A stretch of 40,519 nt of DNA from a virus (lineage: Duplodnaviria > Heunggongvirae > Uroviricota > Caudoviricetes): IMG/VR virus record IMGVR_UViG_2872185964_000011. The stretch is one strand, 5' to 3'. Each line of letters opens with the position of its first letter. Position 1 is the stretch's first letter. Made by a program: the position numbers and the translations under genes. This document shows positions 1,873-40,519 of the stretch, in pieces. The notes under the pieces are model-generated. The model did no database searches. It worked only from the letters and a program-made list of their open reading frames with translations, and was not told the origin of the DNA.

Positions 1873-2069
1873 TACCGGCTGCGACACTTTTGAATAAAAG
1901 CGTCGACATTACGGCGCTCATAACGAACTACTTTTGCACTGAAACGAATTGGTGCCAGGATAGCCCGATGACGATGCTTAATATTCCACTCACATAGCGT
2001 TTTCTGTGTAATACCTAACTTTTGGCATACTTCATCCGGGGTGAGTAAATCGTCGGGTTTCTCGCTCAT
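1869..2069 (-). CDS. small HTH DNA-binding protein, excisionase/AlpA-like candidate
   Basis: 66-aa product MSEKPDDLLTPDEVCQKLGITQKTLCEWN... with HTH-like segment; ATG overlaps helicase stop (ATGA); adjacent and convergent to integrase. Confidence 0.55.
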   Translation of the reverse strand: MSEKPDDLLTPDEVCQKLGITQKTLCEWNIKHRHRAILAPIRFSAKVVRYERRNVDAFIQKCRSRY

Positions 2070-3459
2070 GCTATACCTCTCTTTTTCATGGCATTGAGCA
2101 GGATGTCCTGCACTGTTCGTTTTGAGTTGCGCCGCTCCATCACCATTTCGTCCATAGTGTCGGCGGCGATAATGTGGTGAATGAATACCGGGCGGTTGTG
2201 TCCGGCCTGAATCTGCCGGGTTGGCCCGATGCGTTCGATAATTTGTTGGTACTGCTCCAGATCCCACCAGTGCGAGAAAAACACCAGTATGTTTCCGCCG
2301 TCCTGCATGTTCAGGCCGTGGCCCGCGCTGGCTGGGTGTGCAAAGAGAACAGGAACCTTTCCTGAATTCCAGTCGCGCAGTGTCTGTGGATCCTGGTCGA
2401 GGTGACGACCGCGAGGGAATGCTTTAAGCAAGCGTTCAAGATCGTGTTTCCAGTGATAAGCAACCAGCACAGGTGCGCCAGCTGCTTCGGTCAGTATGCT
2501 GTCCAGCGCTTGTAGTTTGGTGTCATGCAGTTCTGACCAACTTCCGGTGTCGTCTGTGTATACTGCGCCACTGGCGATTTGCAGACATTTCAGTGTCTTT
2601 GCCGCGGCGTTCGGTGCTTCGATGCCTTCGCCATTCAGCTCGAGGAACATTTCCTTTTCCATTTCACGATACTGCTGACGGGCCTTCGGTGGCATATCCA
2701 CGCGGATTACGTTATGGATGGGGTCTTTGATATCGAACCAGTCGGCCGCATCCAGCGAGAGGGTTACATCGGCTAACGCTCGCTGTATTTCACCCTGTGA
2801 GTGAGCAAAAGGCTCCAGTTTGGTCCAGCTCTGCCCGGAAACTGTATCGAGTTGAACCAGCGTGAGGTAAACGCGCCGTAAGTGCGCCCGAGACGTTGCC
2901 CCTGGTCCACAAACCACGATTGTCCCCACAAATCTACCAGGCCGTTCGGTGCTGGCGTACCGGTGAGATTTATCCAGCGCCGGACATACTTATGCGCCAC
3001 TTTGCCCAGCGCCGCCGCGCGCTTACCACCACCGCGCAGCCGGAAGGATTTTAGCCGGGTGCTTTCATCTGGAATGACAGTACCGAACGGCCATCGTTCT
3101 CCCAATTCTTCAATCAGCCAGACAAGGTTATCGTAGTTGATGGTGAACACGCTTGCGTTGCTGTTCGTCAGCGCCATAGAGCGCGCTTTGGCATTACCAA
3201 TAATTGGCTGCACCTCGATATTGCGCAAATGTCCCCACTTCAGTGCTTCATCCGGCCATGTGCTGGCAGCCACGCGCAGCGGCGCGAGGACCAGTGCGGG
3301 GCATGTTTCTGCCCCTGCCATAAAGAGATCTTCCAGCGCAGTGAGCGTTGCCACGGTTTTACCCATTCCCATACCCGCCCAGATGTTGCCGCGCAGAATG
3401 TTAGTTTGGTGATTGATTATGAGGTTTTGATAAATTCTGGGGTGGAATATGCTATTCAT
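2066..3459 (-). CDS. SNF2-family DEAD/DEAH-box helicase, reading frame broken between about 2773 and 2929
   Basis: N-part has Walker A GMGMGKT and DEAH-box-like IPDEST; C-part continues in the -1 frame (LDTVSGQSWTKLEPF...); the two ORFs overlap by 157 nt. Confidence 0.75.
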
Positions 3460-3488
3460 TAATATACCTATGGTAGAATATGGTCACT

Positions 3489-3508
3489 TCTCTCTCTCTA
3501 TATATATA
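3489..3508 (+). repeat. dinucleotide repeat tract (TC)5(TA)5 just upstream of the RBS of the 3525 gene
   Basis: tctctctctc tatatatata read directly; GGAGG RBS at 3515-3519, ATG at 3525. Confidence 0.8.
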
Positions 3509-3524
3509 ACTAACGGAGGCGGGT

Positions 3525-4322
3525 ATGCCCCTGGCGAAAATATTTACAAAGCAAGTTTCTTTATTAACTATGTTTTCAGCGTTAGCTTATGCGATGGCAT
3601 ATTCTTTTCAGAAAGGTGTTGCATCGTATTATGGCTATCCAGACCTTTTTATTAAAATAGACTTAAATACGCTATTGTATTCGGCTGTGTGGCTTTTGTT
3701 TTTTAGTTTTTTATTTCTCGGCGCCTTATATGCGGCGTTGATGTTTGATTTGAAAGGGAAATATTATGTTCCATTTATTGTATTTATAGTTGTTATGCTA
3801 ATGGCTAATATTTGTATAATAGGATTTCATTGGCCTTTTGGTTATTTCTCCGAAACTTCTGTGATGAGTGTTCAGGATATTTTATTATTTGCTATGCTTT
3901 TGTTGAATTATCACAATGTGGTGTCCATGCCAATCCATAGTAAGAGACACGAACATCATATGGAGAGCATTAGAAAATTTGGGAGGCTTGCAGAGTATAA
4001 GAACGTATTTTATTATATCGATTTAAAAATCCTAAAGTCAGCTTTTCCTTTAGGGGTGATAACGTTGTTGATATTGAGCTATACATTCGGGAAGGTTACT
4101 GCATTTAAAAATAACGAATATTATATGGTAGATGGTAGTAATACTAAAGTGTTGCTCAATTCATTTGGTAGTGGTTTTGTTGTTGGTGATTGTGAGTCAA
4201 ATAGCGCAAAATTTGAATTTGTTAATGATTTAAAAGGGATGAGATTCACAATCATGTCCTCTAAAAAGGAAATAGCTAAATTAAAAGAGTGTTTCGAAAT
4301 ACGTGTTAAAAATACGGATTAA
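3525..4322 (+). CDS. hypothetical multi-pass membrane protein; AT-rich accessory gene antisense to the replication operon
   Basis: 265-aa ORF with strong RBS; about four hydrophobic helices in the N-terminal half, soluble C-terminal ~90 aa; visibly AT-rich compared with flanks; no family recognised. Confidence 0.6.
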   Translation: MPLAKIFTKQVSLLTMFSALAYAMAYSFQKGVASYYGYPDLFIKIDLNTLLYSAVWLLFFSFLFLGALYAALMFDLKGKYYVPFIVFIVVMLMANICIIGFHWPFGYFSETSVMSVQDILLFAMLLLNYHNVVSMPIHSKRHEHHMESIRKFGRLAEYKNVFYYIDLKILKSAFPLGVITLLILSYTFGKVTAFKNNEYYMVDGSNTKVLLNSFGSGFVVGDCESNSAKFEFVNDLKGMRFTIMSSKKEIAKLKECFEIRVKNTD

Positions 4323-4334
4323 AGCATAAGTCTT

Positions 4335-4547
4335 TTATCCTTTATTGCGGCTTAAAATAATGGCCTCCAGATTTTTGCTATCCAGCACCACTACGGTAAA
4401 GCCCAGCGCGCGCAACCGTCCGTGTTCGCGCAACTGGTCAGGCCGTGGTGGCTTGCCGGGGGATACGAACTTAAAGGCAACCCCGCCAGCCTTTTTTACT
4501 TCAGCGACGAGGTGCTTTTCGATTAGGTTTTCACGTTCATAGGCCAT
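4335..4547 (-). CDS. VRR-NUC domain protein, C-terminal part only in frame
   Basis: 70-aa ORF; segment AFKFVSPGKPPRPDQLREHGRLRALGFTVVVLDSKNLEAI resembles the C-terminal half of VRR-NUC nucleases; expected N-terminal PD motif region is not in this frame. Confidence 0.5.
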   Translation of the reverse strand: MAYERENLIEKHLVAEVKKAGGVAFKFVSPGKPPRPDQLREHGRLRALGFTVVVLDSKNLEAIILSRNKG

Positions 4548-4974: not shown

Positions 4975-5736
4975 TTACGAGGAAGCGTTAGCTATTTGAG
5001 CTTGTGTAAATTCGAAACCAGAATTTTGTAACCGTTGCACTAGACGAGGAACTGTTTCACGTACATGGTCGTTGAAATTCAGATACAAAATCCCGTTAGC
5101 ATCAGAAGGCTGTTCTAGGTGCTGTTTCTGAAGGATTGCTACATTGCTGCGCCCTAAGGACGAAAGAAGCATACCCATCTCGAGTACAACGTTCTGTCTT
5201 GCGCGGGGTTGGATTTCTGCTTCACCGGCGCGCTTTGAGTATCCCATATCATCAGGTGTCAAAAGAACAATCCCGAAACGGGTAGCAGTTTGTCCTTGCC
5301 CAATTTCACGTTCAAGCTCTTCAATAATGGTGAGTCCAGTCCCTCCCGTATTCTGCAAAATGAAATGGTCTGGTAATCCAAGTTTATGAAGGATTAGCTC
5401 AAGTTGCTCCTTTGCAGTATGGTCATGGCCGTGAACAATGAATATCTTTTTGGGGAGCTCAGATGGCTGTTCTACGGCTAGTGGTGTTGCCGTGGGCGGC
5501 GTTCCTAAATGGGTCATTATTGCAGTTTCAACATTGGGACGTTCTTGAGGGTTACCTTGAAACTGAATGGTCCGGGTGGTGTAAAGGTTAACAATTACGC
5601 CATTCGTTAAACGATAGCAGTCACAAGTCTCACGCTGTTCGTGGGAAAAATTGGTGAACCCACACTCCCTCAAAAAGTCAGGAAAAGTTTCTCTCGGGTA
5701 TGGATAGGTGATCGGCATTTCAGTTAGTTCCTGCAT
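4975..5736 (-). CDS. TIR-like domain protein: C-terminal TIR-like (predicted nucleotide-binding, NADase-type) domain fused to an N-terminal ~95-aa domain of unknown function
   Basis: C-terminal half KKIFIVHGHDH...GIVLLTPDDMGY...RARQNVVLEMGMLLSSLGRSNVAILQK...PSDANGILYL matches from memory the bacterial TIR-like family consensus including the conserved Glu; own RBS and downstream terminator. Confidence 0.6.
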   Translation of the reverse strand: MQELTEMPITYPYPRETFPDFLRECGFTNFSHEQRETCDCYRLTNGVIVNLYTTRTIQFQGNPQERPNVETAIMTHLGTPPTATPLAVEQPSELPKKIFIVHGHDHTAKEQLELILHKLGLPDHFILQNTGGTGLTIIEELEREIGQGQTATRFGIVLLTPDDMGYSKRAGEAEIQPRARQNVVLEMGMLLSSLGRSNVAILQKQHLEQPSDANGILYLNFNDHVRETVPRLVQRLQNSGFEFTQAQIANASS

Positions 5737-5800: not shown

Positions 5801-7864
5801 TCAATCTTTTTTGTAGTGGTACGCCTCAAAACCGCCAGCGTTCAGTGGGATATCGGGCGCCCATTCGGGGTCAGTGGAGAGAAGCGCGGAAAGCGCTTTA
5901 TCGTTGAAATCTTCTGTGTCAGGTGCTTCGGTGATCACCTCGTCGTGTACCGTCAGCACAATGCTGTAACCGGCATCTTCGATAAGCGGCATGTTTCCGG
6001 CCAGAATGTCGCGGGCGGCCGCCTGGGTGATGTTCTCCACCAGCTTTCCGCCGTAGGTTTTGAGTCGTTGCCATTTACGCGAATAAGAGTTAACCCCCAT
6101 GTAGGTGATATTCCCTTTTTCGATAACCGGAGACGGGTAGCATACAGCGCGTCCGGATGGTAGCTGTATGCGCAGCCACGCGCCATCGCGGCGGATTTTA
6201 AGATAACCGCAATACAATGTTTTTTGCGGTGTGGCGATTGCAGTGCGGACGGTGCGCTCCAGTTCGTACCAGAAATCACAGGTCGCGGGATGCGCCCGGC
6301 GCCAGAGACGTTTAAGTGAGTCGCAGGCGATAAATACCCGTTCAGAAAGCCCGTAGGTTGACTTGCGTTTAACCGATTCGTCGTACCAGCTTTTCGCCTC
6401 GCGGATAACATCGCGGGGAATGTTTGGTAGTGCGGCGTTCGCCAGCTCGTCGAGATCGAGACCGTAAACCAGTGCAAAAGTGATGAAGGCCGACACACCA
6501 CCACCATAACCCAGACCGAGTTCCATGACTTTACCGATCTGACGCATGTGTTTATCAACATCATCTGGTGCAATATCGAAAGCTTTTGCATACGCCAGTT
6601 TATATAAGTCCGGACCCGTTCCGGCGTCGTACTCTCTGAATGCATTCAGTTTCCATTCTTCTCCCGCCAGCCATGCCAGCATACGGCCTTCAATGTTCGA
6701 CAAGTCACTTACCACCAGCTTTTTGCCTGTTGGCGCGATAATGCAGCCACGTAACGCTGAACTGGTTAGTTCCATGATATTGTCAAACAGCAGGTCTGCA
6801 CATCCGGCTTTCAGTGCTTCGATGCCTTCGTCTATTTGTTCCTGTTTTAGTGAAGGGCGGGGAAGGTTCTGGGGCTGGAATAGCCGTCCGGCCCAACGAC
6901 CGGTACGTGACGCCCCGCAGAACTGTAGCGTACCGCGTAAGCGCCCGTCGTGGCTTACGCCTTTCATCAGTGCCTTGTATTTACTGGTGCTGGTAGTACT
7001 GGCCTGCAGGCGGATAGCCAGCAGTTCTTTCACGGCAGATGGTAAATCGGGGTCGGCAATACGACGTTCCAGAGTACTGCGTTGCATGTCTGGTAGCTCC
7101 ACACCGTAGGATTCAACAATGTGCTTAATCAACGCGTCTCGTTGTGTGGCTGCCTGCACTTCGCCATCAGTCATTTCCTGTGTACGCTTTGCCAGGCGCT
7201 TTTGTTCCTGGTCTACCGCGTCGATCGCAGCGCGTGCGAGTTCCACGTCCATGCAGACGCCCCGGTCATTGATCTGCTGATCACGATGCCAGAGCGCCAG
7301 TTCTGTCCCCTGATAATTCCACTTCGGCAGACGTTTATAGACTTCGCGCATTGCCTCGATATCCAGTCCGGCGTAAGCAACAAAGCGCCGCCATTCTTCC
7401 GGGTGGGTTTTGCTGGTGGCCCGGCGCAGTTTGCTGTTTTTCGGGCGTGGCTTACAGAACAGCTGGATCAGCGCTTTACCTTCTTTGTCCTTCGCTTTGT
7501 CTTGCGGGACGCCTAGTACTTCGCAGAGTTCCCCCAGAGACCCCGGGAGACCGTGCGCCAGCGCCTGCACCATTGTGTCGCGCCAACGTTCGACTGGCGG
7601 TGCCAGGCGCGGCATTGCATAACGCAGAACGGTGCGGTCGAAGTGAGAGTTATGGAAATAAAGCTGGGTTTCAGGGTCTGCGATTGCTTCGTATAAGCCG
7701 TGTGGAATACCACCACCGGCAGTGATATCCCACACGTTTACTGGCCCGTCGTTGATAGCCCATGCGAAAAGCATCACTTCAACGCCTTCGGCATACGCAT
7801 GGGTACCGTTCGTAATAGGGATTTCGCAATAGGTTTCCAGGTCGCCCCATAGTATATTGGACAT
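5801..7864 (-). CDS. family A DNA polymerase with N-terminal 3'-5' exonuclease domain
   Basis: 687 aa; exo motif [11 protein letters not shown]; polymerase motif [16 protein letters not shown], motif [17 protein letters not shown], motif C VHDEVI. Confidence 0.85.
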
Positions 7865-7910
7865 GTGTTTACCTTGGTTTTTATTCTATTAACTGATTAA
7901 AAGTTTAATT

Positions 7911-8540
7911 ATGCATATGATCCAATACTTGATTGACCATACAGAGCATCTGGAGAAAATAGCTGGATATATTTTTTCATGTTTGATTGTTATGGGAGTC
8001 TGGATAAGAAAGATCATTTTTAATTATAAGTATAAAGAGCCTAAATATGTCAAGAAGTTAATTTTATATTTAGTTAAGTATGAACGTTATCTGGATGAGG
8101 AGGATAAGAGTGCCATAGAAAAAAGAATAAATGATAAAATTATTCGTGATGCGCTGAAATTGCAATCCTCTTATAACCGAAGAGATGTTATTTACATTTG
8201 CAATAGATTAGAAAAAAGACAGTATATAAATCAGTTGATTAAGCTTCAGAATTATATAGAGAAAGATAACGGAGTGTTTTTTATTAATGTTGATTTTTCA
8301 GGTTTTTTATTTATTATTAGTCGTCTGTTTTCCTTTCTGTGTTTTGTGCTGTTTACCCTTTTTTCTATTATCTGCATTATTTCCATAGGGCAAAATGAAG
8401 GCCTTTTAAATTATCTTGTGTATATGGTTATGATAATAGTTTTAGAGACTGTTGGTTTTTGGATGTATGATACTTTCCCGTCTAAGAAAAAGATCTGTGA
8501 ACTAAATAAAGAATTGAGAAAGATTAAGATTCCTGAGTGA
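7911..8540 (+). CDS. hypothetical membrane protein; second AT-rich accessory gene antisense to the replication operon
   Basis: 209-aa ORF; one N-terminal and two C-terminal hydrophobic helices flanking a charged Lys/Glu-rich middle; very AT-rich; no family recognised. Confidence 0.55.
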   Translation: MHMIQYLIDHTEHLEKIAGYIFSCLIVMGVWIRKIIFNYKYKEPKYVKKLILYLVKYERYLDEEDKSAIEKRINDKIIRDALKLQSSYNRRDVIYICNRLEKRQYINQLIKLQNYIEKDNGVFFINVDFSGFLFIISRLFSFLCFVLFTLFSIICIISIGQNEGLLNYLVYMVMIIVLETVGFWMYDTFPSKKKICELNKELRKIKIPE

Positions 8541-8558
8541 TTATACGCCTAATCAGTA

Positions 8559-8577
8559 GCCCGGTGTTTAACCGGGC
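8559..8577. terminator. GC stem-loop between convergent genes (GCCCGG-tgtttaa-CCGGGC)
   Basis: perfect 6-bp inverted repeat read directly; no clear T-tract. Confidence 0.3.
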
Positions 8578-8592
8578 GTCTATGAAGTAGGG

Positions 8593-9141
8593 TTAAATTA
8601 GTGCTTCAGCATCAGCACCTTCGCTGATATCGTCGAAATCGTCAGCGCTTGCCACTCCGCCGCCAGCGAATGCATCGCCGTCTCGCAGGAACTGGACTCC
8701 GCCGAGTGAGGCATTAATGCGTTTACCGAAATTATTGTCCTGTGCCCAGATATCGATAACGGCGTTTACATAGCACCCTGCATAGGGACGTCCGTCAGCC
8801 TGAATAAGTGGCGAACGATCGCGATCAAGAACAGCTGGGCGCGCTTTGTTAGCAGCATTCAGGAAGAAATTACCGGGGAAGCCTTCATACTCTGCTTTTT
8901 CATCACCATCATGCAGGCACAGATTGAGTTTTTTCTCCAGCTGGTTATAAATGGGCTCCCACTTCTCTCCCCATTTTTCCTTCGCTACCTGCTTCATAGC
9001 TTTACGGATTTCTTCCAGTTGTGGGTGTTTGGGAGACATTAAAAATACTGCGGAGAAACGCGGATCGCCTTCGCCGTTTACAGTTTTAGCTTCAAACAGA
9101 GACGGGAAGGCCAGACGAACATTGTTCAGCTTCAGTTTCAT
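8593..9141 (-). CDS. phage ssDNA-binding-like protein (DUF2815-type, from memory)
   Basis: 182 aa starting MKLKLNNVRLAFPSLFE, acidic C-terminal tail (DDFDDISEGADAEALI) typical of SSB-like proteins; position between nuclease and polymerase. Confidence 0.55.
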   Translation of the reverse strand: MKLKLNNVRLAFPSLFEAKTVNGEGDPRFSAVFLMSPKHPQLEEIRKAMKQVAKEKWGEKWEPIYNQLEKKLNLCLHDGDEKAEYEGFPGNFFLNAANKARPAVLDRDRSPLIQADGRPYAGCYVNAVIDIWAQDNNFGKRINASLGGVQFLRDGDAFAGGGVASADDFDDISEGADAEALI

Positions 9142-9156
9142 GGGGATTTCCTTAAA

Positions 9157-10457
9157 TCAGATGAGGTCTGCGGTTAGCGTATCGTCGGATACGTCGTCGA
9201 AATCATTTACAGGGTTGATATTGAGTGCGGGGCGTGGGTCTGACTCGGGAACGATGGTGGGTTTACCATCAGCTCGTGTTATCAGTGCCTCGACTTTTGA
9301 CCAACGGCGCGGACTGGCCTTTTTGATAAGTGTTTCGGCTTTTGTGGGGCTAATAAGTTTAAAGTCGAATACTTCTTCAGTTTTGTACCTGAACTGGTCC
9401 TTCAGAAGTGCGCGAGCTGCCTCTTCATCACTCCAGGCCCGGTTACCTTGTTTTCCTGTTACCAGTTTAAACCCCGGTACCGGATGTCCGGCATTGAGTT
9501 CATTGTGAACCCGGTCTCGTACTGCCTTTAGCCAGGATTCAATAAAGTCGGCCTGGCTATAGATCTCCGCAAGCTGCTCAATGGTTAACAGAGGTAAACG
9601 TGCGCTGGCATTGGTGATTATTTCGCTGACAGGCTTTGTCAGATCTTCAAAATCGCTGGCCGCTGTTTGTAAATGCTGCATTTTCTGGGCAGTGCAAATA
9701 GCTTTTGCTTTACAGAAGCGGCACTGTTTTTCTCCAGGTATGAAGTTTTCCAGCGGTAGTGTCTCAATGCCTTCGCATTCAGCAATATTGAGAACAAGGA
9801 TCGCACTGGTTGCGGCCTCCTGTGCCCGTTCACCGAACGCCTGGAGCTCTTCCACCGTCAGAGCCCACTCTGAAACGTGGTTAAGCCGCGGCTGGTGGAT
9901 GAACAGGCGCACCGTCTCGAAGTCGTACAGCATGCTGAATTGTTCGAGCGCACCCAGAGCATACAGTTGTAGTTGCTCATTTTGTTCTGCATCAATGCGG
10001 ACGCCTTTGCCATATTTCAGGTCGTGGATTTGTAATTCGCTACCAGCAATGATTATGCCGTCGGCAGTTCCGAAAGATTCTTCCACACCCGTTATATGTG
10101 AGAAATCAACACGTTGTTCAACCAATAGTTCATTATTCTGTGCAAGAGTCCAGACCGTATCAACATACCGGCCAACGGCTTCGACCATTTCATCATCCAC
10201 CTGTGGGCCGGATGTATCATCAGGATTTTCGCGAAGGGGTATGAGCCGAGAAACATAGAAACATTGCATCCGGCGTAGTGTTCCGGGTGGCTTTGCCTGT
10301 TTCGTAGAACTTTTTCAGCAAGCGCGTGCGCTGCAGTGCCCTCGATTGCAAAAGTTGTTTCTTTATCCGGTTGTGTGGCCTCCAGCGCCAGACTTCCTGG
10401 GCAGCGCATCCATCGATGCGCTGATGATGGAGAAAGTTGTGCGTGAACGTCTGGCAT
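9157..10457 (-). CDS. PD-(D/E)XK-type nuclease (DUF2800-like, from memory), reading frame broken near 10270-10330
   Basis: N-part [26 protein letters not shown]...[13 protein letters not shown]; C-part in the -1 frame with [12 protein letters not shown] and a [10 protein letters not shown] cysteine cluster. Confidence 0.6.
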
Positions 10458-38563: not shown

Positions 38564-39109
38564 TTATGTGTGAGATGAGTTATAAATAATTTCAGAGTGA
38601 AATTTAGTAATGAATGTGGAGTCATCAGGAATGTCATGCAGTACCAATGCATGAGCTCCTATTTTTACATTATTCCCTATATGCACTTTGCCACCAAGGA
38701 TGGTGGCGTTACAGCCAATGGTTACATTATTTCCTATGACAATATCCATATCATTAAATTCACCGCGAAGTCCAATAGTTACCCCTGGCTTAATTGAACA
38801 ATTTTCACCTATTGTAACTTTGTGACCGATAACAACGCCATTGAGATAAGATATGTCGAACCCTTTACCAATATTTACAGTTAAGGGAACGGTTACATTG
38901 TATTTATCAAGAATGAAGCGTTCTATTTTTCCTGCAATCTTTCGCCGGTATCCTCCTTTATCAAAAAGATATTTTGCTACGCGCCACCAAAATAAATAAC
39001 GTAATCTTCTGTGTTTTATTGCGCGAACAATTGCTTTTCGCCAGGAGAAAGGGCGTTTATAACCTATTACTTCATAGTGTATACAGTTTTTAAGTTCACT
39101 AATATTCAT
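38564..39109 (-). CDS. hexapeptide-repeat acetyltransferase (serine-acetyltransferase-like left-handed beta-helix fold); cargo gene
   Basis: 181 aa with tandem hexapeptide repeats (VIGHKVTIGENCSIKPGVTIG...IGNNVTIGCNATILGGKVHIGNNVKIGAHALVL); AT-rich; antisense to tail genes. Confidence 0.7.
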   Translation of the reverse strand: MNISELKNCIHYEVIGYKRPFSWRKAIVRAIKHRRLRYLFWWRVAKYLFDKGGYRRKIAGKIERFILDKYNVTVPLTVNIGKGFDISYLNGVVIGHKVTIGENCSIKPGVTIGLRGEFNDMDIVIGNNVTIGCNATILGGKVHIGNNVKIGAHALVLHDIPDDSTFITKFHSEIIYNSSHT

Positions 39110-39190
39110 ATGTCTATTATTCAGTAAAGATAATTCTGTAACTTATTATTATATTAAGTTTAATGAGATTTTTCTACAGTTTACTGTCTT

Positions 39191-39322
39191 ACTCTCACGC
39201 CGGAGCAATGGGCGCAGGCTGGACGACAAATTGCATCAGGAGTTTCTCGCCAGAAAATGGCGATCATCTATGATGTTGGCGTATCGACTTTGTATAAGAA
39301 GTTTCCGGTCGGAGATGAATGA
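39191..39322 (+). pseudogene. 3'-terminal remnant of a Gin/Pin/Hin-family DNA invertase gene (HTH domain only)
   Basis: own translation TLTPEQWAQAGRQIASGVSRQKMAIIYDVGVSTLYKKFPVGDE resembles the Gin/Hin C-terminus; upstream is AT-rich with no catalytic domain. Confidence 0.6.
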
Positions 39323-39403
39323 AACCGTGGCACGTCGTATGCAAGAACGTGCCACGGCTGGCTGATAAGCTTGTAAAAATCTTGAACAGGGAGTGGAGCA
39401 TTT

Positions 39404-40051
39404 CTATGAAGCTAATTTGTTTAATTTCATTTGTAGCGACTTTACTTCTTGGTCGATAATGTTGAATCCCTTATTGACTGCATCTCTTAGTTCTGCATCA
39501 ATATTTTTTATCCCTTGAGCATAATCTACCATTACATCTATTTTTTCATCATGTAATCTCTTATACATGGTTTTATCTTTGTTATTGTCAGCCATACCAA
39601 TAAGTATTTTTTCATAATCCTCAATGAGTTTGTTGTTTCCTTTAAATGATTGTATTAATGACCGTGAATATGTGTAGATATTAATTATTGAGTCTCTGGC
39701 AGAATCATTTAGTTTTGCAATGACATTCGCATTTTGCTCATAGAATGTGAAATTATCATCCCCTACAGGGAAAGTGAGAATTAATATCTGTCCGGGTTTG
39801 ATATTATCAATGTGTGTTTTCATCCTTTTATTATATAAATTGATTAGGGTGAAAACTTCTCCCTTAACACCTTTTAATACTGAAAGTTGCAATTCAAGGG
39901 ATTCTCTTTCTGTCTCTACTTTAGACAGCTTAGCTTGTTGGGTAACTCCTTTTAGGGTAAACCATCCGCCAATAAGAGTACCAACTAGAGCTGTGAGGGA
40001 GGAGGATAACCATCCAGGAATGCTATTTAAAAAATTACTAAATTCACTCAT
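39404..40051 (-). CDS. hypothetical membrane-anchored protein; cargo gene at the right end
   Basis: 215 aa; N-terminal hydrophobic helix (LSSSLTALVGTLIGGWFTL), then helical and globular segments; AT-rich; no family recognised. Confidence 0.55.
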   Translation of the reverse strand: MSEFSNFLNSIPGWLSSSLTALVGTLIGGWFTLKGVTQQAKLSKVETERESLELQLSVLKGVKGEVFTLINLYNKRMKTHIDNIKPGQILILTFPVGDDNFTFYEQNANVIAKLNDSARDSIINIYTYSRSLIQSFKGNNKLIEDYEKILIGMADNNKDKTMYKRLHDEKIDVMVDYAQGIKNIDAELRDAVNKGFNIIDQEVKSLQMKLNKLAS

Positions 40052-40188: not shown

Positions 40189-40519
40189 GGTGATGCTGCC
40201 AACTTACTGATTTAGTGTATGATGGTGTTTTTGAGGTGCTCCAGTGGCTTCTGTTTCTATCAGCTGTCCCTCCTGTTCAGCTACTGACGGGGTGGTGCGT
40301 AACGGCAAAAGCACTGCCGGACATCAGCGCTATCTCTGCTCTCACTGCCGTAAAACATGGCAACTGCAGTTCACTTACACCGCTTCTCAACCCGGTACGC
40401 ACCAGAAAATTATTGATATGGCCATGAATGGCGTTGGATGCCGGGCAACTGCACGCATTATGGGCGTTGGCCTCAACACGGTTTTACGTCACTTAAAAAA
40501 CTCAGGCCGCAGTCGGTAA
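40189..40519 (+). mobile_element. IS1 insertion sequence, left end and insA (partial; continues beyond window)
   Basis: starts GGTGATGCTGCCAACTTACTGATTTAGTGTATGATGGTG, the IS1 terminal inverted repeat as I recall it. Confidence 0.9.
40244..40519 (+). CDS. insA: IS1 InsA protein
   Basis: 91-aa product [43 protein letters not shown]... matches InsA. Confidence 0.9.

Follow-up and report, generated by a model that had tools for sequence, protein, structure and literature searches.

P22 SieA and HK97 gp15 are the described proteins closest in kind to the one considered here. P22 SieA, of 162/164 amino acids, resides in the inner membrane, has three predicted transmembrane helices (TMs) and prevents the injection of DNA (Leavitt et al. 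2024, PMC10883804). Three types of SieA, <30% identical to each other, share one slot, and their best-conserved motif is cytoplasmic and C-terminal; types A and B are ~24% identical alleles of that slot (PMC10883804). HK97 gp15 is an inner-membrane exclusion protein (Cumby et al. 2012, PMC3594210) and belongs to the moron concept (Juhala/Hendrix). Here we analyse a gene for a 209-amino-acid predicted inner-membrane protein (7911..8540, + strand) in IMGVR_UViG_2872185964_000011, a Caudoviricetes record from IMG/VR; the window is this whole stretch of 40,519 nucleotides, and coordinates refer to it unless another locus is named. In keeping with the moron concept, this is a single extra gene between conserved genes, with deviant composition and its own orientation, exchanged among unrelated phages. 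It departs from the concept in that its own promoter is only a candidate here, a terminator scan found nothing and its expression in the lysogen is only expected, and in that it sits in a replacement hotspot rather than at a simple insertion. The gene is an uncharacterised prophage membrane moron, probably for exclusion or defence, and one already flagged computationally by others.

A replacement cassette in the early operon

The window is an Escherichia coli prophage (yfhL, 1-261; integrase, 580-1872), and a near-identical prophage is annotated at the matching chromosomal site of strain A4. The 2.5 kb tested around the gene (7000-9500) are 98.6% identical to Escherichia phages vB_EcoM-606R2, -689R2 and -611R5. 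RefSeq annotates the same frame and ATG start as the open reading frame (ORF) list, as hypothetical protein WP_000551017.1, and literature searches on the phage names and on WP_000551017 found nothing. On the left, the gene is flanked by a conserved family A DNA polymerase gene (5801..7864, - strand; Pfam DNA_pol_A, E 3.4e-14) and on the right by a conserved gene for an Enc34-type single-stranded DNA-binding protein (SSB; DUF2815; 8593..9141, - strand; Pfam PF10991, E 7.6e-44), beyond which Pfam identifies a DUF2800 PD-(D/E)XK protein. Because the polymerase and SSB genes are both on the - strand, the 209-amino-acid gene is antisense within a leftward early operon, and the Pfam matches confirm the two flanks that had been named from the DNA letters alone (hereafter the sequence-only reading). 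GC content is 0.29 in the ORF, 0.284 at 8001-8500 and 0.30 across the whole interval from the polymerase start codon to the SSB stop codon (7865..8592), against ~0.49 in the flanks.

This interval is exchangeable. Among 5,426 complete E. coli genomes, 159 have the polymerase and SSB flanks. The 209-amino-acid gene is found in 67 of the 159, intact in all 67 and at 97.9-100% identity; these carriers are ~1% of complete E. coli genomes and include enterotoxigenic E. coli (ETEC) H10407, O103:H2 12009, O55:H7 CB9615 and IAI1. The other 92 genomes have flanks 98-99% identical to those of the window and unrelated cassettes between them. Occupants were typed in 60 of the 159 genomes, sampled at even spacing, and comprise the 209-amino-acid gene (25/60), cassettes with an Nmad5 nucleotide-modification gene (20/60), a 199-amino-acid hypothetical protein on the + strand (6/60) and a BRO-N protein (3/60), with a single flank matched in 6/60. 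The slot thus holds at least five alternative cassettes (at least four besides that of the 209-amino-acid gene), and an empty polymerase|SSB slot was not seen in the relatives, where some cargo is always present. The Nmad5 gene is on the - strand; its + strand partner, directly upstream of the polymerase, is either an 89-amino-acid protein with two TMs (WP_000490740.1; L001, 2422-2691, + strand) or a 229-amino-acid soluble protein (WP_000215799.1; L003, 2427-3116, + strand). An antisense gene abuts the polymerase start in almost all slot variants.

The boundaries of the exchange are sharp. In blastn comparisons of the window with four alternative-cargo loci, 97-99% identity ends at the polymerase ATG (7864) and restarts at the SSB stop (8593), except for a left edge at 7871 in one locus and edges at 7852 (left) and 8560 (right) in the BRO-N locus. 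The 728-bp interval is a moron, a self-contained and horizontally exchanged cassette, and homologous recombination in the conserved flanking genes would swap it in and out of the polymerase|SSB junction. The sequence-only reading had taken the gene for acquired cargo on composition and orientation; the 92 flank-bearing genomes that lack it, the sharp boundaries and the AT-rich relatives in different mobile elements (described below) bear this out, and alignment against related phages shows a variable slot and a gene that is not conserved in all of them. The same reading's suggestion that the replication module is an accessory hotspot also holds, as at least three operon slots (SNF2|VRR-NUC, VRR-NUC|polymerase and polymerase|SSB) vary between close relatives. 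Among relatives that share the cassette, the SNF2|VRR-NUC slot has a 265-amino-acid membrane ORF in the window and a 236-amino-acid protein, two small proteins or a cytosine methyltransferase elsewhere. The VRR-NUC|polymerase slot has a TIR protein in the window and elsewhere a histidine-kinase-like ATPase, or only ANR and DUF4406 genes.

A position between DNA polymerase and SSB could also mean that the gene serves the phage's own lytic cycle, as a membrane anchor of the replication complex (like phi29 p16.7) or through antisense transcription that throttles the polymerase. The gene is kept in inducible phages, and its predicted cytoplasmic domain, modelled as helix-helix-helix plus a beta-hairpin, could bind nucleic acid, although the fold search gave no confirmation. 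Moreover, the sequence just upstream of the polymerase ATG differs from one cassette variant to the next, and the cassette, because it contains the polymerase ribosome-binding site, necessarily affects polymerase expression. We nevertheless regard a lytic role as very unlikely: 58% of close relatives with the same polymerase and SSB carry unrelated cargo, homologues occupy non-replication contexts (a P2 tail-gene slot, a site beside lambdoid Q, a contig resembling an integrative and conjugative element (ICE), islands and chromosomal sites), and the gene persists beside inactivated replication genes. The narrower candidate of a core replication or membrane-anchoring factor was rejected, the gene being absent from 92/159 prophages, without named-family homology and with relatives outside replication modules; the remote-homology search for such a factor found none and leaves the cargo interpretation in place.

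The slot is a natural experiment, in which divergent alleles of one family stand beside Nmad5, BRO-N and other cargo in near-identical prophages. It is also a ready source of candidate defence and counter-defence genes, and a tractable case for studying the coexistence of antisense cargo and an essential early operon.

A divergent family across Enterobacterales elements

The 209-amino-acid protein matches phrog_10579 (function unassigned) over residues 28-209 with E 2.9e-108. This profile starts at Met28; the N-terminal TM is kept in distant relatives, which supports the longer RefSeq start. A word-indexed search of 5.8 billion proteins returned only near-identical copies, and an exhaustive phmmer search of 1.84 billion representatives returned ten matches, including full-length relatives at 43%, 38%, 27%, 28%, 28% and 25% identity. 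Collinear relatives of ~200-218 amino acids, 16-43% identical, span at least nine genera, with one representative of 261 amino acids that has an N-terminal extension. The family is rare, and its members come from Enterobacterales only (Escherichia, Klebsiella aerogenes, Enterobacter, Pluralibacter, Serratia, Rahnella, Rouxiella, Pantoea/Erwiniaceae and Xenorhabdus), and every PHROG 10579 family member is annotated as hypothetical. All 21 aligned relatives match PHROG 10579 at E <= 1, the E. coli 199-amino-acid allele alone reaching only E 0.099. The 21-sequence alignment (A5) is collinear, with N199 and L202 invariant and P190, I195, K204, R90 and I125 nearly so; P190, I195 and K204 are present in >=90% of its members. 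Against 50,697 phage records, tblastn with the 209-amino-acid query found only three near-identical E. coli phages (98.6% identity), and the 199-amino-acid protein had no match.

The 199-amino-acid alternative has the same slot, orientation and three-TM layout as the 209-amino-acid protein. An end-to-end alignment of the two has ~20% identity, though their flanks are 98% identical, and hhalign pairs the 199-amino-acid family with the 209-amino-acid protein at 87% probability (E 3.7e-6, 144 columns). Judged by this profile comparison, the alternative is a distant homologue.

Beyond the window, the family gene was followed through 12 further loci representing ~8 independent contexts, in each of which it stands alone, at GC 0.28-0.40 compared with 0.41-0.55 in the flanks. 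A K. aerogenes prophage carries it in the same polymerase|SSB slot and orientation at a different integration site. In an Erwiniaceae lambdoid prophage it lies immediately upstream of antiterminator Q, with a dGTPase (PADLOC, E 5.5e-144), a PDDEXK_GAPS4 protein matching an Hp1 model, and a methylase and HNH pair as neighbours. A metagenomic phage contig has it antisense between RecT and a PAPS reductase gene. Outside phages it is found at the end of an Enterobacter CP4-57-like island with CbtA/CbeA, RadC and antirestriction genes; in the ICE-like contig, with a TraG_N gene nearby; at the edge of a Xenorhabdus element with Tn3, HicA and a Tad2-like gene; on the Xenorhabdus chromosome between SLT and thrS; and in a Serratia integrase island, directly beside a type I restriction-modification specificity gene and a Septu-like pair (PtuA, E 8e-31, and a PtuB-like protein). 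Rahnella P2-like prophages carry a 38%-identical member in the gpS|gpV slot, where P2 has the non-essential antisense orf30. That slot and polymerase|SSB are alike as intra-prophage cargo hotspots; they differ in that gpS|gpV lies between two operons and polymerase|SSB inside one, and P2 Orf30 is unrelated to the family.

Two family members have an uncharacterised gene directly upstream. One encodes a 424-amino-acid protein without a Pfam or PADLOC match (L011, 6469-7743, + strand), and the other a 354-amino-acid protein, likewise without a match in either database (L006, 5681-7041, + strand), followed by a DUF6966 protein without a PADLOC match. Since each of these upstream genes is restricted to one of the two contexts, they probably represent cargo in their own right.

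The family record bears on whether the gene is a selfish or decaying ORF without function, that is, AT-rich DNA fixed by recombination in a permissive intergenic site. The protein has no known domain, allele differences in E. coli are non-synonymous as often as synonymous, copies P0002, P0003 and P0028 are truncated or frameshifted, and RefSeq leaves the gene unannotated in one O55:H7 genome. Even so, such an origin is extremely improbable. The longest ORF in 5000 shuffles of the 728-bp cassette has 134 amino acids; because no shuffled ORF reached 209 codons at 30% GC (0/5000), ORF 7911-8540 is not a chance one. Length, three-TM layout and N199/L202 (with P190, I195 and K204 in >=90% of members) are kept down to ~17% identity across genera, and AlphaFold2 produces a confident model once the family alignment is given, with a predicted local distance difference test (pLDDT) score of 81.9 with alignment A5 and 60.8 with a shallow alignment.

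Probable exclusion or defence at the inner membrane

We hold with about even confidence that the 209-amino-acid protein would be an anti-phage exclusion or defence protein at the inner membrane. Because the gene points against the repressed early operon, it would be transcribed independently in the lysogen, an expectation drawn only from orientation. The most probable mechanism would be SieA-like, a block of superinfecting genome translocation across the cytoplasmic membrane, acting through the conserved cytoplasmic domain and the basic C-terminal tail. Within the same defence reading, the protein might alternatively be a phage-triggered, membrane-permeabilising abortive-infection effector.

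Predicted topology is N-out/C-in, with TM1 at residues ~17-37, a cytoplasmic helical domain at ~43-125, TM2 at ~131-159, TM3 at ~165-187, a TM2-TM3 periplasmic loop of 4-5 residues and a basic cytoplasmic tail at 188-209. The three hydrophobic segments are those the sequence-only reading had described, one N-terminal and two C-terminal, around a middle part rich in Lys and Glu (residues 38-130 contain 20 K+R and 14 D+E). Nearly all members have a charge pattern that fits this orientation, with an acidic N-terminal tail, a basic stretch after TM1 and a basic C-terminal tail; across members the TM2-TM3 loop has 3-13 residues and is neutral or acidic. From this charge distribution, nearly all soluble mass is predicted to be cytoplasmic. 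Conservation is highest in the cytoplasmic C-terminal tail and lowest in TM2, the loop and TM3. The AlphaFold2 model has a long N-terminal helix (11-37), then four short helices (43-111) and a beta-hairpin (116-125), followed by long helices at 132-160 and 165-188 and a terminal helix (192-202).

SieA (PHROG 7745) is the closest parallel for this layout. Both genes are prophage morons antisense to the surrounding operon and far more AT-rich than their flanks; the P22 sieA sequence retrieved here has GC 0.34 against 0.50, runs opposite to the late operon and is annotated with a promoter of its own. Both proteins have ~160-210 amino acids and a predicted inner-membrane layout in which the N-terminal TM is followed by a cytoplasmic stretch rich in K and E, a pair of C-terminal TMs and a short basic cytoplasmic tail, the best-conserved part (the retrieved type B SieA of E. 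coli HS has 212 amino acids). P22 SieA has KRKR after its N-terminal TM, in a layout that matches that of the PHROG 10579 family, and in both cases very divergent alleles, ~20-25% identical, share one slot. The differences lie in the tail, which reads FxRYPxEAxxFNK in SieA and (F/L)Px(K/R)xxIxx(I/L)NxELxK in the PHROG 10579 family, with a different P-to-N spacing; in the cytoplasmic domain, about twice as long in the PHROG 10579 family; and in distribution, as SieA occurs only in P22-like prophages, in the slot between genes 16 and 9, whereas the PHROG 10579 family occurs in many element types. The gene studied here sits at polymerase|SSB of a prophage that matches vB_EcoM phages (a myovirus-type name), not in the 16|9 slot. 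Taken together, architecture, composition, allele divergence and the conserved cytoplasmic tail make the SieA parallel a concrete mechanistic hypothesis.

Genomic neighbours and an external prediction also point to defence. Family members are repeatedly adjacent to defence genes, as in the lambdoid prophage and the Serratia island, and a TIR protein is encoded 2 kb away in the window. Table S10 of DefensePredictor lists WP_000551021.1 as a "Predicted novel defense gene" without homology to known defence proteins, with a mean log-odds of 6.1 at a strict cutoff of 4 (Science 2026, PMC13092281). WP_000551021.1 occurs in H10407 and ETEC-2264 and differs from the window protein at six residues; in the 'uncharacterized_clusters' it is one table line among 1,041 clusters, as a prediction only, and it does not appear in the tables of tested systems consulted. 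The 209-amino-acid gene is intact where replication genes are broken, by a polymerase frameshift in H10407, by IS1 in DUF2800 in XH993 and by 1-nt deletions in SNF2 and DUF2800 in the window, an anecdotal fit to a host-beneficial function. Functional pairing with the TIR (PDC-S35) gene was considered and rejected, as the cassette also occurs with the histidine-kinase-like ATPase or with ANR and DUF4406 in the VRR-NUC|polymerase slot.

A number of results weigh against exclusion or defence, beginning with SieA itself. Homology is unproven: hhalign probability for the family is 0.2% against P22 SieA, 0.5% against HS1 SieA and 1.5% against both (E 0.034), and the unrelated TM protein P2 Orf30, used as a noise control, gives a similar E of 0.092. 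Known-family searches returned little more. PADLOC-DB v2 (5027 models) has no match at E <= 1 for the 209- or the 199-amino-acid protein, and Pfam, NCBIfam and PADLOC scans of the 209-amino-acid protein and 21 relatives found nothing significant, only faint TM-driven matches to families of holins, DUF2207_C and TraS. No profile match to a PDB sequence had an E-value under 0.65, and a fold search of the model found no match at E < 1e-3. Substitutions among E. coli alleles number 5 synonymous and 6 non-synonymous in one lineage and 0 and 7 in another, which shows no clear excess of synonymous changes and is too few changes for dN/dS to be informative. The predicted periplasmic part consists of only ~16 N-terminal residues and the 4-5-residue loop, and so little exposure is awkward for a protein that would have to meet phage ejection proteins. 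Neither guilt by association nor DefensePredictor is independent of genomic context, 45% of 94 tested DefensePredictor units were validated overall (PMC13092281), and the family members are known from sequence alone. Regulatory signals are weak as well: the region has five promoter-like sites against 3.8 +/- 2.3 in shuffles, no excess, so that the site at 7858-7887 is no more than a candidate; a terminator scan found nothing, and the hairpin at 8559-8577 is not followed by a U-tract on either strand.

In the comparison of family and SieA profiles, TM2, TM3 and the tail fall in register (best support 1.5% probability, E 0.034). None of the 21 family members matches phrog_7745, and searching the phage collection by tblastn with SieA types A and B gained no extra diversity for the profile. 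By these comparisons the family resembles SieA in kind and architecture, and membership of the SieA family is not supported. A bolder proposal, which we regard as distinctly unlikely, is that the two would be branches of an ancient, fast-evolving superfamily of three-pass inner-membrane gatekeepers, an element-agnostic module for exclusion of DNA entry. Such gatekeepers would act from the cytoplasmic face to stop DNA from entering, by way of the conserved basic tail and its action on a host factor. They would travel as single-gene morons on phages, ICEs and islands alike rather than being P22-specific.

A holin assignment was also rejected. The only candidate matches are phrog_2508 (E 0.37) and Pfam holins (E 0.25 or worse), and the gene is not in a lysis cassette; the annotation of a near-identical prophage places holin, endolysin and lysis-accessory genes ~9 kb away from it.

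Pore-forming colicin immunity genes and TraS/Eex genes encode small AT-rich multi-pass inner-membrane proteins and are antisense to their neighbours. The 209-amino-acid gene shares this layout, and it might accordingly serve lysogenic conversion or fitness without a part in phage defence, for example as an orphan immunity gene against a pore-forming bacteriocin, through TraS/Eex-type conjugative entry exclusion, or by modulating membrane stress or transport. One family member has a faint Pfam TraS match (E 0.1), the member in the ICE-like contig is near a TraG_N gene, and some relatives have no defence neighbours, as at the SLT/thrS site in Xenorhabdus. This alternative is nonetheless unlikely on balance. 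No significant match to a colicin-immunity or TraS family was found; the ICE-like contig gene is not downstream of traG, where traS/eex sit; most contexts are phage rather than conjugative and bacteriocin genes are absent nearby; and the defence neighbours and the DefensePredictor score favour defence. If the protein does exclude phages, it would represent a new single-gene inner-membrane defence family without a detectable relative among characterised systems.

The promoter candidate, a weak sigma-70-like TGGACA-18-TATTCT (7858..7887, + strand), scores 9/12 in a consensus scan, and its -35 element overlaps the polymerase start codon. At the other end of the gene, a GC-rich hairpin (8559..8577) that folds on both strands lies between the convergent 3' ends of the membrane-protein and SSB genes. 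Its sequence, GCCCGGT/GTTTA/ACCGGGC, forms a 7-bp stem (local fold z -3.2 and -3.9 for the + and - strands), which is invariant among the alleles compared, with changes confined to the loop. The stem-loop that the sequence-only reading had placed after the gene is therefore a real fold, but it is not a canonical terminator. Nor is it clearly the gene's own, because most of it (from 8560 on, with the right arm) and the sequence down to 8593 are shared with the unrelated BRO-N cassette and each variant has its own, different GC-rich hairpin right after the SSB stop (8541-8592 in the window, with equivalents in L001-L004). The hairpin at 8559-8577 may be part of the SSB 3' end no less than of the cargo, and a hairpin after SSB may be a conserved structural requirement, for example for stabilising the 3' end of the SSB message or blocking antisense read-through. 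The Nmad5 cassettes have, on the + strand, a T-run after their hairpin.

Other cargo and sequence damage in the window

The TIR protein in the VRR-NUC|polymerase slot (4975-5736, - strand, 253 amino acids) has a CAP12/Pycsar-type TIR domain (Pfam, E 2.9e-31) and a full-length match to the PADLOC candidate system PDC-S35 (E 6.8e-109). The other antisense membrane-protein gene that the sequence-only reading had reported in the module is also present, as a 265-amino-acid ORF (3525-4322, + strand) with several hydrophobic segments, GC ~0.34-0.38 and no Pfam match, and it lies in a segment that varies between near-identical prophages. This segment, ~3424-4363, differs from strain A4, where the 236-amino-acid protein is encoded, and from H10407, which has the cytosine methyltransferase.

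Several genes of the module appear damaged. Relative to strain A4, 1-nt deletions after 2833 (SNF2) and after 10235 (DUF2800) split SNF2 (2066-3459) and DUF2800 (9157-10457) into overlapping ORFs, which could be prophage decay or sequencing error. The VRR-NUC ORF (4335-4547, - strand) has only 70 amino acids, compared with 89-97 in relatives, and its match to strain A4 covers only ~100 nt, with 86% identity, possibly as the scar of a recombination. At the right end, beyond the tail-fibre and tail-fibre-assembly genes, an AT-rich block (38564-40051, - strand, and 40244-40519, + strand; GC 0.33-0.38) looks like more prophage cargo. It contains a 181-amino-acid hexapeptide-repeat acetyltransferase-like ORF, and a 215-amino-acid ORF that has a TM at its N-terminus and an extended helical region, followed by an IS1 InsA-like ORF.

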